NCBI RefSeq assembly: GCF_003018255.1
Contig: NZ_CP027440.1
Source of the DNA: Escherichia coli
GTDB taxonomy: Bacteria; Pseudomonadota; Gammaproteobacteria; Enterobacterales; Enterobacteriaceae
DNA length: 64,000 nucleotides
Direction: 5' to 3' (one strand)
Shown here: positions 457 through 56,882 of the stretch, one piece after another
Position numbering within the stretch: position 1 is the stretch's first letter
Layout: every line of letters begins with the position of its first letter
The notes under the pieces: generated by a model
Database searches by the model: none
The model's input: only the letters and a program-made list of their open reading frames with translations
Told to the model about the DNA's origin: nothing
Made by a program: the position numbers and the translations under genes

Positions 457-780
457 CTACAGGCGGTGGCGATAATCGCTGGGAGTGCGATCAAACTGCC
501 GACGGAAAACGCGGGAGAAGGTCTGCTGAGAGACATAACCCAGGTCCATTGCGATATCAAAAATCGGACGCTCGGTGGTGCGCAACTCAACGGCGGCCAG
601 TAACAGGCGGCGTTGGCGAATGTAATCACCTAGTGTCTGATGCGTCACAGTACGGAACATCCGCTGTAAGTACCACTTTGAATAGCCTGATTTTTTTGCG
701 ACGACATCAATGTTAAGCGGCTGGTCAATATGCTCGTCAATCCATGCGATAAGATCCTGAATAATTTTCTGATGGGACAT
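457..780 (-). CDS. soxS: SoxS superoxide-response transcriptional activator (AraC/XylS family)
   Basis: 107-aa ORF recognised as SoxS; divergent from soxR with the SoxR operator between them. Confidence 0.95.
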   Translation of the reverse strand: MSHQKIIQDLIAWIDEHIDQPLNIDVVAKKSGYSKWYLQRMFRTVTHQTLGDYIRQRRLLLAAVELRTTERPIFDIAMDLGYVSQQTFSRVFRRQFDRTPSDYRHRL

Positions 781-865: not shown

Positions 866-1330
866 ATGGAAAAGAAATTACCCCGCATTAAAGCGCTGCT
901 AACCCCCGGCGAAGTGGCAAAACGCAGCGGTGTGGCGGTATCGGCGCTGCATTTCTATGAAAGCAAAGGGTTGATTAGCAGTATCCGTAATAGTGGCAAT
1001 CAGCGGCGATATAAACGTGATGTGTTGCGATATGTCGCAATCATCAAAATTGCTCAGCGTATTGGCATTCCGCTGGCGACCATTCGTGAAGCATTTGGCG
1101 TGTTGCCCGAAGGGCATACATTAAGTGCGAAAGAGTGGAAACAGCTTTCGTCCCAATGGCGAGAAGAGTTGGATCGGCGCATTCATACCTTAGTGGCGCT
1201 GCGTGACGAGCTGGACGGATGTATTGGTTGTGGCTGCCTTTCGCGCAGTGATTGCCCATTGCGTAACCCGGGCGACCGCTTAGGAGAAGAAGGCACAGGC
1301 GCACGCTTGCTGGAAGATGAACAAAACTAA
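866..1330 (+). CDS. soxR: SoxR redox-sensing MerR-family regulator ([2Fe-2S])
   Basis: 154-aa ORF; N-terminal MerR-type HTH and C-terminal [12 protein letters not shown] cysteine cluster. Confidence 0.95.
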
Positions 1331-1355
1331 AGCGCCACAAGGGCGCTTTAGTTTG
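1323..1355. terminator. Bidirectional rho-independent terminator at soxR 3' end
   Basis: Inverted repeat AAACTAAAGCGCC..GGCGCTTTAGTTT straddling the soxR stop, with T-runs on both strands. Confidence 0.6.
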
Positions 1356-1465
1356 TTTTCCGGTCTTTGTCTTTCTCTCTATCCCGCTGGTACACAGGAG
1401 GGTTTCCCCCGACGTCAACACACCTCATTCGAGCACGTGGTGGAGGTTCCGGTTGGTGTTGATGC
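1325..1465 (-). ncRNA. ryjA: Candidate small RNA RyjA (convergent with soxR)
   Basis: Positional inference only: K-12 has a ~140-nt sRNA on the opposite strand ending at the soxR terminator. No sequence-intrinsic proof; boundaries approximate. Confidence 0.3.
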
Positions 1466-1875
1466 TTTAATTGTATGTCACCGGCGTTTCTTCGCCAGTG
1501 TAAAAGTACACTTTTTAGCCGCAATATTTTTGTCATCTCAGACGATTTTTTATCGCAATCCTGAACGGTATACGGCTCGATAACGCTGCAATCTTGCGCA
1601 TCGACGATAACGTTTGCGCATCAATTGCCTGGTTTTTCATCGTCAAGACAATAAAAGAGAAAAAAGCAGCAAACTTCGGTTGAAAAAGCCGCTATGATCG
1701 CCGGATAATCGTTTGCTTTTTTTACCACCCGTTTTGTATGCGCGGAGCTAAACGTTTGCTTTTTTGCGACGCACCAATTTGTCGCAAACCTGGAGCAGGA
1801 AGATAACGTTTCGCTGGCAGGGGATTGTCCGCCACGCATCTTGACGAAAATTAAACTCTCAGGGGATGTTTTCTT

Positions 1876-3225
1876 ATGTCTACGCCATCAGCGCGTACCG
1901 GCGGTTCACTCGACGCCTGGTTTAAAATTTCACAACGTGGAAGCACTGTCCGTCAGGAAGTGGTTGCCGGGTTAACAACATTTCTGGCGATGGTCTACTC
2001 GGTTATCGTCGTTCCAGGCATGTTGGGTAAAGCAGGCTTCCCGCCTGCGGCAGTTTTCGTTGCGACCTGTCTGGTTGCCGGACTCGGTTCTATCGTGATG
2101 GGTCTGTGGGCTAATCTGCCGTTGGCGATTGGTTGCGCCATCTCCCTGACGGCGTTTACCGCATTCAGTCTGGTGCTGGGGCAACATATTAGCGTACCTG
2201 TCGCGCTGGGTGCCGTGTTCCTGATGGGTGTGCTGTTTACGGTCATTTCTGCCACGGGTATCCGTAGCTGGATTTTGCGCAACTTGCCGCACGGTGTGGC
2301 GCACGGCACGGGGATTGGTATCGGTCTGTTCCTGCTGCTGATTGCTGCTAATGGTGTCGGTCTGGTGATTAAAAACCCACTTGATGGTCTGCCCGTCGCG
2401 CTGGGGGATTTCACGACCTTTCCGGTGATGATGTCGTTGGTGGGGCTGGCAGTGATTATCGGCCTGGAAAAACTGAAAGTCCCTGGTGGCATTCTGCTGA
2501 CCATTATCGGTATCTCAATTGTCGGTTTGATCTTCGATCCTAACGTCCATTTCTCCGGCGTTTTCGCCATGCCTTCATTGAGCGATGAAAACGGCAATTC
2601 ACTAATTGGCAGCCTGGACATTATGGGCGCGCTGAATCCTGTAGTCCTGCCAAGCGTTCTGGCGCTGGTGATGACGGCAGTATTTGATGCCACCGGAACT
2701 ATCCGTGCCGTCGCCGGCCAGGCGAACCTGCTGGATAAAGATGGGCAGATCATCGACGGCGGGAAAGCACTGACCACTGACTCCATGAGCAGCGTTTTCT
2801 CTGGCCTGGTGGGTGCAGCTCCGGCAGCGGTATACATCGAGTCTGCGGCGGGTACGGCGGCGGGCGGTAAAACCGGTTTGACGGCTATCACCGTTGGCGT
2901 GCTGTTCCTGCTGATTCTGTTCCTCTCTCCGCTCTCTTACCTCGTTCCGGGGTATGCAACGGCTCCGGCGCTGATGTACGTTGGCCTGCTGATGCTGAGT
3001 AACGTGGCGAAAATCGACTTTGCTGATTTTGTTGATGCGATGGCGGGTCTGGTTACGGCGGTATTCATCGTGCTGACCTGTAACATCGTAACAGGCATCA
3101 TGATCGGCTTCGCGACTCTGGTGATTGGTCGTCTGGTTTCCGGCGAATGGCGCAAGTTGAACATCGGTACGGTCGTTATCGCTGTGGCGCTGGTGACCTT
3201 CTATGCGGGTGGCTGGGCTATCTAA
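1876..3225 (+). CDS. ghxP: Guanine/hypoxanthine permease (NCS2/AzgA family)
   Basis: 449-aa polytopic membrane ORF; position after soxR matches yjcD/ghxP. Confidence 0.9.
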
Positions 3226-3375: not shown

Positions 3376-5025
3376 ATGGAAATCTTCTTCACCATACTGA
3401 TAATGACCCTCGTGGTCTCGCTGTCCGGGGTGGTCACTCGTGTCATGCCCTTTCAGATCCCGCTTCCGCTTATGCAAATCGCCATCGGTGCGCTACTGGC
3501 GTGGCCGACGTTTGGTTTGCATGTGGAGTTTGATCCTGAACTCTTTTTAGTCTTGTTTATCCCGCCGTTGCTGTTCGCTGATGGCTGGAAAACGCCGACC
3601 CGTGAATTTCTCGAACATGGTCGAGAGATTTTCGGCCTCGCGCTGGCGCTGGTGGTGGTCACCGTGGTCGGCATTGGCTTTCTTATTTACTGGGTGGTGC
3701 CGGGCATTCCGCTGATCCCCGCCTTTGCGCTGGCGGCGGTGCTTTCTCCGACCGATGCTGTGGCGCTCTCGGGGATTGTTGGCGAAGGGCGCATCCCGAA
3801 AAAAATCATGGGCATTTTGCAGGGCGAAGCGTTGATGAATGACGCCTCCGGTCTGGTGTCGTTGAAGTTTGCCGTGGCAGTGGCGATGGGGACGATGATC
3901 TTCACCGTCGGTGGTGCGACGGTCGAATTTATGAAAGTGGCCATTGGCGGTATTCTCGCCGGTTTTGTGGTGAGCTGGCTGTACGGTCGCTCGCTGCGAT
4001 TCCTCAGCCGCTGGGGCGGTGATGAACCCGCGACGCAGATCGTCCTGCTGTTCCTGCTGCCATTCGCTTCTTATCTGATTGCCGAACATATTGGCGTTTC
4101 CGGTATCCTCGCTGCGGTTGCCGCCGGGATGACCATCACCCGTTCCGGTGTGATGCGCCGTGCGCCGCTGGCAATGCGCCTGCGCGCAAACAGTACCTGG
4201 GCGATGCTGGAATTTGTCTTTAACGGCATGGTATTCCTGCTGTTAGGTCTGCAGCTGCCGGGTATTCTGGAGACGTCGCTGATGGCGGCAGAAATCGACC
4301 CTAACGTCGAAATCTGGATGCTGTTTACCGATATCATTCTGATTTATGCGGCGCTGATGCTGGTCCGTTTCGGCTGGCTGTGGACGATGAAAAAGTTCAG
4401 CAACCGCTTCCTGAAGAAGAAGCCGATGGAGTTTGGTTCGTGGACCACACGAGAAATCCTGATCGCGTCTTTCGCCGGGGTGCGTGGGGCGATCACTCTG
4501 GCTGGTGTGCTCTCAATCCCGCTGCTCTTGCCGGATGGTAACGTCTTCCCGGCGCGCTATGAGCTGGTGTTCCTGGCGGCTGGTGTCATTCTCTTCTCGC
4601 TGTTTGTCGGCGTGGTGATGTTGCCTATTCTGCTACAACACATTGAAGTCGCGGACCATTCGCAACAATTGAAAGAGGAACGTATTGCGCGAGCGGCAAC
4701 GGCAGAAGTGGCGATTGTGGCGATCCAGAAAATGGAGGAGCGTCTGGCGGCGGATACCGAAGAGAATATCGATAACCAGCTGCTCACAGAGGTTAGTTCT
4801 CGCGTCATTGGTAACCTGCGTCGTCGCGCCGATGGACGTAACGACGTTGAAAGTTCCGTGCAGGAAGAGAACCTTGAGCGTCGCTTCCGTCTGGCGGCAT
4901 TGCGTTCTGAACGTGCTGAACTGTACCACCTGCGCGCCACGCGGGAGATCAGTAACGAAACGCTGCAAAAATTACTGCACGATCTCGATTTGCTTGAAGC
5001 GTTGCTGATTGAAGAGAACCAATAA
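3376..5025 (+). CDS. yjcE: Putative Na+/H+ exchanger (CPA1 family)
   Basis: 549-aa ORF with N-terminal multi-TM domain and charged C-terminal tail. Confidence 0.85.
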   Translation: MEIFFTILIMTLVVSLSGVVTRVMPFQIPLPLMQIAIGALLAWPTFGLHVEFDPELFLVLFIPPLLFADGWKTPTREFLEHGREIFGLALALVVVTVVGIGFLIYWVVPGIPLIPAFALAAVLSPTDAVALSGIVGEGRIPKKIMGILQGEALMNDASGLVSLKFAVAVAMGTMIFTVGGATVEFMKVAIGGILAGFVVSWLYGRSLRFLSRWGGDEPATQIVLLFLLPFASYLIAEHIGVSGILAAVAAGMTITRSGVMRRAPLAMRLRANSTWAMLEFVFNGMVFLLLGLQLPGILETSLMAAEIDPNVEIWMLFTDIILIYAALMLVRFGWLWTMKKFSNRFLKKKPMEFGSWTTREILIASFAGVRGAITLAGVLSIPLLLPDGNVFPARYELVFLAAGVILFSLFVGVVMLPILLQHIEVADHSQQLKEERIARAATAEVAIVAIQKMEERLAADTEENIDNQLLTEVSSRVIGNLRRRADGRNDVESSVQEENLERRFRLAALRSERAELYHLRATREISNETLQKLLHDLDLLEALLIEENQ

Positions 5026-5043
5026 CGCTTTGGCGGTGTAATC

Positions 5044-5076
5044 GGTAAAAAGGTGCAGTACATCGCACCTTTTTAC
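5044..5076. terminator. Bidirectional hairpin terminator between convergent yjcE and actP
   Basis: GGTAAAAAGGTGC-AGTACATC-GCACCTTTTTACC: stem flanked by A-run and T-run. Confidence 0.65.
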
Positions 5077-5107
5077 CGTTGGTCAGGTGACCAGAGGCTA
5101 GTGGAGA

Positions 5108-7068
<1,961 letters not shown>

Positions 7069-56824: not shown

Positions 56825-56841
56825 AATTAAGCCAACCTTAA
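56825..56841 (-). promoter_or_regulatory. BasR/PmrA box upstream of eptA
   Basis: Minus-strand CTTAAG-GTTGG-CTTAAT, ~45-60 bp upstream of the eptA ATG. Confidence 0.6.
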
Positions 56842-56857
56842 GTTCTTAAGGTTGGCT
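56829..56857 (-). terminator. Hairpin downstream of adiC (overlaps the PmrA box)
   Basis: AGCCAACCTTAAG-TTCT-TAAGGTTGGCT inverted repeat with T-rich flank. Confidence 0.45.
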
Positions 56858-56882
56858 TTTATGTTTGCTTGATTAAGGGGAA

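Follow-up and report, generated by a model that had tools for sequence, protein, structure and literature searches.

The sequence at the 3′ end of soxR in the window (the whole stretch of E. coli DNA that was analysed, 64 kb in length) contains the gene for the small RNA RyjA/SraL and its terminator, both of which are already known. The explanation that best accounts for the data as a whole, and that we consider likely, is that the sraL gene ends in a hairpin at which the transcripts of both sraL and the convergent soxR gene are terminated. Sequence tools or the literature establish what the small RNA is, where it begins and ends, how conserved it is, and which promoter type and terminator it has. 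The use of the same hairpin by soxR is deduced from the symmetry of the element and from comparative data. The first 5 kb of the window have the gene order pdeC'-soxS-soxR-ghxP-yjcE. The features of this segment are listed below.

457..780, minus strand: soxS.
866..1330, plus strand: soxR, 154 aa, stop codon TAA at 1328-1330 (from the ORF list and the RefSeq annotation of the identical locus of strain 104 and of K-12).
1319..1331, minus strand: U-rich tract, with the minus-strand sequence TTTAGTTTTGTTC; the annotation places the 3′ end of RyjA at 1323.
1323..1463, minus strand: sraL (ryjA) gene, 141 nt long, with transcription running from 1463 to 1323 (from Rfam and K-12 identity).
1324..1354, both strands: putative shared terminator hairpin with a perfect Watson-Crick stem of 13 bp (1324-1336 / 1342-1354) and a loop of 5 nt (1337-1341).
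1331-1347: G+C-rich core of the hairpin, AGCGCC/GGCGCT.
1347..1359, plus strand: U-rich tract after the G+C core, TTTAGTTTGTTTT; the predicted 3′ end of soxR mRNA is at ~1355-1360.
1442..1452, minus strand: block CCGGAACCUCC, nt 12-22 of the small RNA, a candidate target-pairing region.
1470..1475, minus strand: −10 hexamer TACAAT; counted from the start at 1463, the hexamer spans −12 to −7 and the TAA after it −6 to −4.
1493..1498, minus strand: weak element resembling a −35 box, CTGGCG (CTGGCA in the family consensus), presumptive in role and located 17 nt upstream of the −10 hexamer.
1876..3225, plus strand: ghxP.
3376..5025, plus strand: yjcE.

The first-pass annotation had postulated a convergent minus-strand small RNA locus, RyjA, between positions 1323 and 1465. 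A search with Rfam model RF01408 (sraL, 'sraL Hfq binding RNA') confirmed its existence: the match runs from 1463 to 1323 on the minus strand, covers the full model (positions 1-142 of 142) and scores 153.3 bits (gathering score 39, E = 7.1e-36). The postulated span is within 2 nt of this match and of the K-12 gene. In the K-12 record NC_000913.3, the ncRNA gene ryjA (b4459) occupies positions 4277926..4278066 on the minus strand and overlaps the end of soxR (4277933) by 8 nt; the 141 nt of the window are 100% identical to it and found at the same place relative to soxR and ghxP. The minus-strand transcript on which the proposal had been made to depend is present in published Northern blots and 3′ RACE experiments (PMC3753932, PMC5389530). 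The locus shares with the known SraL/RyjA (RF01408; b4459; the Salmonella sraL gene between soxR and STM4267) the convergence with soxR, the terminator and a sigma-S-like −10 sequence. The RNA itself shows no difference from the known one; what differs is only the surrounding strain sequence and the missing annotation. Records produced by PGAP (e.g. NZ_CP029164.1, locus L002) give soxR and ghxP with no ncRNA between them. The curated K-12 record alone carries ryjA; in most E. coli genomes, the automatic RefSeq annotation lacks it.

A query of 801 bp was found in 5420 of 5426 complete E. coli genomes; it is 100% identical in E. coli strain 104 and 98.6% identical in K-12. Of these 5420 genomes, 5398 have the small RNA segment at 99% identity or more. 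Between the start of soxR and the start of ghxP, the window differs from K-12 by 20 substitutions, none of which falls inside the small RNA. Two of the differences (nucleotides 978 and 1085) change the SoxR protein relative to that of K-12: T38S (ACC to AGC, 977-979) and G74R (GGT to CGT, 1085-1087). We take both changes to be common natural soxR polymorphisms of non-K-12 E. coli.

SraL/RyjA was discovered in 2001 as an RNA of about 140 nt that accumulates in stationary phase (PMC3753932). In Salmonella, it is transcribed directly by sigma-S, with an RpoS ChIP enrichment of more than 100-fold, and its Rho-independent terminator is conserved in all enterobacteria examined (PMC3753932). Salmonella SraL represses the tig mRNA, encoding trigger factor, by pairing through the SraL 5′ region (Silva et al. 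2013, PMC3753932). The RNA decays more quickly in the absence of Hfq (Silva et al. 2013). It is polyadenylated at its 3′ end and is among those most increased in a pcnB mutant (PMC5389530). As cited in PMC6582626 from Silva et al. 2019, Salmonella SraL also pairs with the rho leader and blocks premature Rho-dependent termination. A literature search combining RyjA and RIL-seq returned nothing.

The comparative analysis used a pattern made from two conserved blocks of the small RNA, which retrieved 100 loci from species-representative genomes of more than 20 genera. Almost all loci are from Enterobacteriaceae, including Escherichia, Citrobacter, Salmonella, Enterobacter, Klebsiella, Raoultella and Kosakonia; Buttiauxella, Cedecea, Leclercia, Atlantibacter and Trabulsiella are further genera with sraL. 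One locus from an archaeal MAG (L024) was discarded as a chance match to the pattern, having neither soxR nor an Rfam match. Representatives from other genera were all recognized as RF01408 (9 of 9, 110-165 bits). In about 96 of the 100 loci, the C-terminus of SoxR (CIGCGCLS...) is encoded on the opposite strand just downstream of sraL; thus, the convergent arrangement is ancestral. An alignment (A1) was built from 94 distinct enterobacterial sequences. The block CCGGAACCUCC is identical in all 94, an invariance that follows from retrieval since the loci were fetched with a pattern containing it; the block is also in upper case, denoting high conservation, in the Rfam RF01408 consensus, which is independent of A1.

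Upstream of the transcription start, three positions of the −10 region (A −11, A −9 and T −7) are invariant among the 94 sequences of A1. The family consensus of this hexamer is TACACT, in the context CTACACTTAA, and is preceded by a C in most genera. The −35-like block, CTGGCRAA, is conserved in A1 with one invariant G. The sequence of the −10 region fits the published assignment of the promoter to sigma-S. A sigma-70 promoter scan of the window did not call the sraL promoter; a sigma-S promoter whose −35 element is poor should indeed escape such a scan.

At the other end of the gene, the first-pass annotation had noted a 13-bp perfect stem straddling the soxR stop codon, with T-runs on both strands. 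The stem is as described: the arms at 1324-1336 and 1342-1354 are 100% complementary and separated by 5 nt, and the TAA at 1328-1330 sits in the 5′ arm. Perfect hairpins of at least 13 bp (loop 3-9) occur three times in the 64-kb window and never in 30 block shuffles, and a 76-nt plus-strand segment folds with an energy of −34.2 kcal/mol (z = −5.7), a value matched by none of 200 shuffles. The stem is therefore beyond chance. As for the T-runs, the claim holds with a qualification. A terminator scan applying a simple rule found a match on the minus strand only (1354..1324, 13 pairs, 6 G-C, loop 5). The plus strand failed because the 8 bases past the full 13-bp stem contain just 4 T (GTTTTCCG). 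When measured from the G+C core (plus-strand tail TTAGTTTGTTTTCC, minus-strand tail TTAGTTTTGTTCATC), the T-runs are present in both directions, with tail scores of −3.82 (plus) and −3.84 (minus). The hairpin energies are −19.0 kcal/mol (plus) and −18.4 kcal/mol (minus). At its base, over 7-8 bp, the stem is A/T-rich (AAACTAAA/TTTAGTTT). Since, in addition, all pairs are of the Watson-Crick type, both strands yield GGCGC-UUUAGUUU..., with a U-rich tail after the G+C core.

Across the family, the hairpin, (A)AACTAAAGCGCC-loop-GGCGCTTTAGTT(T), hardly varies except in its loop, which ranges from 4 to 9 nt. In A1, 96% of the cells are paired, 7 of the 13 pairs never vary and 2 pairs show compensatory double changes (CUAAAG/CUUUAG to CGAAAG/CUUUCG; AAC/GUU to AGC/GCU). 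Few cells (16) hold a G-U pair, which on the opposite strand would be a mismatch. The tails are T-rich both ways, the mean score across the family being −3.89 toward the small RNA end and −3.64 in the soxR direction. When the Rfam consensus structure was mapped onto one aligned sequence, 94.7% of the cells of the whole structure were paired as compared with 36-52% in slid controls; both-side changes affected 10 pairs versus 5.5 in shuffles, with 0 of 500 shuffles reaching the observed value, and helices 1 and 6 of SraL were found to covary. The strong conservation of the hairpin could simply be part of a generally slow evolution of the small RNA's entire 3′ half.

Together, these data lead to the following model. 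Transcription of sraL starts at 1463 from the sigma-S-type promoter (−10 at 1470-1475) and heads toward soxR. It stops at an intrinsic terminator composed of the core at 1331-1347 and the A/U-rich lower stem that extends it to 13 bp; the tail UUUAGUUUU comes next, and the RNA ends at 1323. The plus strand encodes an equally stable hairpin followed by UUUAGUUUGUUUU, and soxR transcripts would most likely end there too, at ~1355-1360. A single DNA element would thus close both convergent units, with the two RNAs overlapping by ~33 nt. SraL acts in trans, on tig and the rho leader in Salmonella. The two units meet at the hairpin, soxR ending at 1330 on the plus strand and sraL at 1323 on the minus strand. 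Downstream of soxR, the sraL hairpin is the first structure that resembles a terminator, and in most cases the only one; termination of soxR transcription there is therefore most likely. Between soxR and ghxP in the window, the terminator scan gave no other plus-strand terminator-like site. A separate soxR terminator in the genera with long spacers was considered and rejected: 38 of the 40 loci in which the soxR stop codon is more than 20 nt from the core have no other terminator-like hairpin in the spacer.

Two loci deserve separate mention. In locus L092 (~5800-6500), the soxR stop codon lies ~520 nt from the sraL hairpin, and the spacer contains a separate strong terminator-like hairpin (AAAAACCCAGG...CCTGGGTTTTT); an insertion separates soxR and sraL in that lineage. 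In Enterobacter sp. EA-1 (L057, CP025776.1, ~425-630), soxR appears frameshifted near its 3′ end (...CPLRNPRRPAWAAGYRRAPVGRRLRCIKTKAPVGAL*) and the resulting ORF runs through the whole sraL hairpin. The frameshift is either a sequencing error or the mark of a pseudogene.

The position of the soxR stop codon relative to the hairpin varies within the family. Escherichia and the Citrobacter amalonaticus group have 1 nt between the stop codon and the G+C core. Most genera have 7-25 nt, and the gap reaches as much as 158 nt in some members of Citrobacter, Enterobacter and Lelliottia. In most genera, SoxR ends in ...LLEDD* or ...LLEED*, with the stop codon just outside the stem; in Escherichia and the C. 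amalonaticus group, the protein ends in ...LEDEQN*. Comparing Citrobacter sp. FP75 (GAA GAT GAT TAA AAC TAA AGC) with the window (GAA GAT GAA CAA AAC TAA AGC) shows how the change arose: conversion of the ancestral TAA stop to CAA made SoxR two codons longer, up to the in-frame TAA present in the invariant stem arm. The location of the soxR stop inside the stem is thus specific to Escherichia and the C. amalonaticus group, and is a derived rather than an ancestral trait.

This configuration bears on how efficiently soxR transcription might end at the hairpin. In one study, a terminator located a few bp from a stop codon was almost completely repressed in vivo (PMC4824070). A ribosome at the soxR stop codon would cover the 5′ arm of the hairpin, so that termination of soxR could be leaky under coupled transcription-translation; indeed, it may be leaky when the coupling is tight. 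One could take this further and imagine that, in Escherichia and the C. amalonaticus group, the move of the stop codon into the AAACTAAAG arm made soxR termination translation-dependent through ribosome masking. Read-through transcripts would then run antisense across sraL and its promoter, and SoxR synthesis would be coupled in cis to SraL output and, thereby, to tig and rho. We consider this elaboration improbable.

An alternative is that the hairpin ends sraL only, and that soxR transcription reads through it and is stopped either by Rho farther downstream or solely by head-on collision with the RNA polymerases that transcribe sraL. The failure of the plus strand in the strict terminator scan could be taken in its favour, as could, above all, the ribosome masking allowed by a stop codon within the stem, given that terminators so close to a stop were nearly inactive in vivo (PMC4824070). 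Moreover, collisions have been proposed to drive termination at hairpins that lie between convergent E. coli genes (bioRxiv 10.1101/2022.10.23.513370). However, hairpin energy and U-tract score are practically equal on the two strands, the T-tract in the soxR direction is kept across genera, and neither the window nor the great majority of the long-spacer loci (the 38 of 40 above) offer an alternative terminator-like hairpin past soxR. Furthermore, since sraL is transcribed mainly in stationary phase, collisions could not halt soxR transcription in growing cells. On balance, a terminator dedicated to sraL seems rather unlikely.

The possibility that the overlap itself is regulatory carries less weight still. 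As the first-pass annotation had anticipated, the small RNA is complementary to the soxR 3′ end, over 8 nt of coding sequence; complementarity to the soxR mRNA would extend to about 32-37 nt if this mRNA ends just past the hairpin. SraL might then act as a cis-antisense RNA on the 3′ end of soxR mRNA, through duplex formation and cleavage by RNase III, or the two genes might be subject to mutual transcription interference, either of which would link the sigma-S response to the SoxR level. The RNAs would indeed be perfectly complementary over the hairpin (about 33 nt), and the convergent layout is kept in about 96 of 100 loci. Yet in each of the RNAs the complementary stretch is tied up in a very stable intramolecular hairpin, and the overlap with the coding sequence is lineage-specific, the stop codon lying as far as 158 nt from the core in other genera. 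In addition, no paper accessible to searching ties SraL to soxR functionally, and the demonstrated targets, tig and rho, are regulated in trans. We therefore view a regulatory role of the overlap as very improbable; a cis-antisense function of SraL on soxR, in particular, is unlikely. That the stem is a palindrome due to chance or belongs to a repeat family, or that the locus codes for a small protein, is hardly conceivable. The E. coli small RNA does have an ATG at nt 36, which opens a 26-codon ORF that ends at the TAA in the hairpin arm. However, this ATG is found in just 10 of 94 sequences, the frame is broken by indels (lengths modulo 3 distribute as 47/31/16), and the covariation of helices 1 and 6 speaks for a structured RNA. 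The chance palindrome was rejected as no hairpin of at least 13 bp occurred in the shuffles, and the dispersed repeat because the locus is single-copy, with a median of 1 place per E. coli genome.

Returning to the reading in which one hairpin terminates both soxR and sraL, published 3′-end data and precedents were searched. The curated Term-seq table of Adams et al. 2021 contains no 3′ end at K-12 positions 42778xx-42780xx on either strand, and no entry under the gene names; this absence probably reflects low expression. The SMRT-Cappable-seq supplements yielded no match to a soxR or ryjA 3′ end. A literature search for an explicit soxR/sraL shared terminator returned only an unrelated use of the term 'bidirectional terminator'. 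Bidirectional terminators at convergent E. coli gene pairs have been described as a prevalent class (Ju et al. 2019, as related in bioRxiv 10.1101/2022.10.23.513370). As far as that account goes, the soxR/sraL pair resembles this class in having one hairpin-forming element, within the convergent overlap, that would define both 3′ ends. On the same account, members of the class are said to be unlike canonical intrinsic terminators, whereas the soxR/sraL hairpin looks canonical on both strands (G+C core plus U-tract); the pair also differs from the class so portrayed in that one partner is a small RNA instead of a protein-coding gene. Several small RNAs in the table of Sittka et al., among them those of the spf/yihA and glmZ/hemY loci of Salmonella, have the same '-> -> <-' layout, with the 3′ end of an Hfq-associated small RNA facing a convergent gene; they are mentioned as an analogy only.

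Some additional sequences in the window were noted in passing. The region upstream of ghxP (1578-1815) contains four copies of the motif (A/T)AACGTTT(G)C.

1606-1617: GATAACGTTTGC.
1706-1722: TAATCGTTTGCTTTTTT.
1749-1765: TAAACGTTTGCTTTTTT.
1799-1811: GAAGATAACGTTT.

These four boxes resemble half of the PurR operator. A promoter-like site, TTGAAA-18-GATAAT, is found on the plus strand at 1680-1709, also upstream of ghxP. The promoter of yjcD (= ghxP) has been reported to have a PurR motif and to be repressed by adenine (PMC3809563). Beyond yjcE, 18 nt past its stop codon (5025), lies a 14-bp perfect hairpin (5043-5078, CGGTAAAAAGGTGC ... GCACCTTTTTACCG, loop 8) with A/T-rich flanks on both sides. 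This is probably another terminator and could act in both directions. Finally, one of the three perfect hairpins of at least 13 bp in the window is a 13-bp palindrome, AAGCCAACCTTAAGTTCTTAAGGTTGGCTT, at 56829-56858.

The importance of these findings beyond annotation is small. RyjA/SraL already has a defined promoter, a defined terminator and two validated targets. The points that are new, and only mildly so, are comparative: the invariance of the hairpin on both strands across the family and the simple mutational origin of the stop codon overlap in Escherichia. As long as ryjA is missing from automatic RefSeq annotation, scans of raw sequence will keep finding RyjA/SraL anew. The hairpin very probably also serves soxR. 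In E. coli, any deletion or tag at the 3′ end of soxR also changes the sraL terminator, and vice versa, which matters for the interpretation of soxR or sraL mutants. The stop codon overlap arose recently, as a by-product confined to a single lineage. The locus neatly illustrates how a single hairpin, invariant on either strand, would close a protein gene and a small RNA gene across the Enterobacteriaceae.
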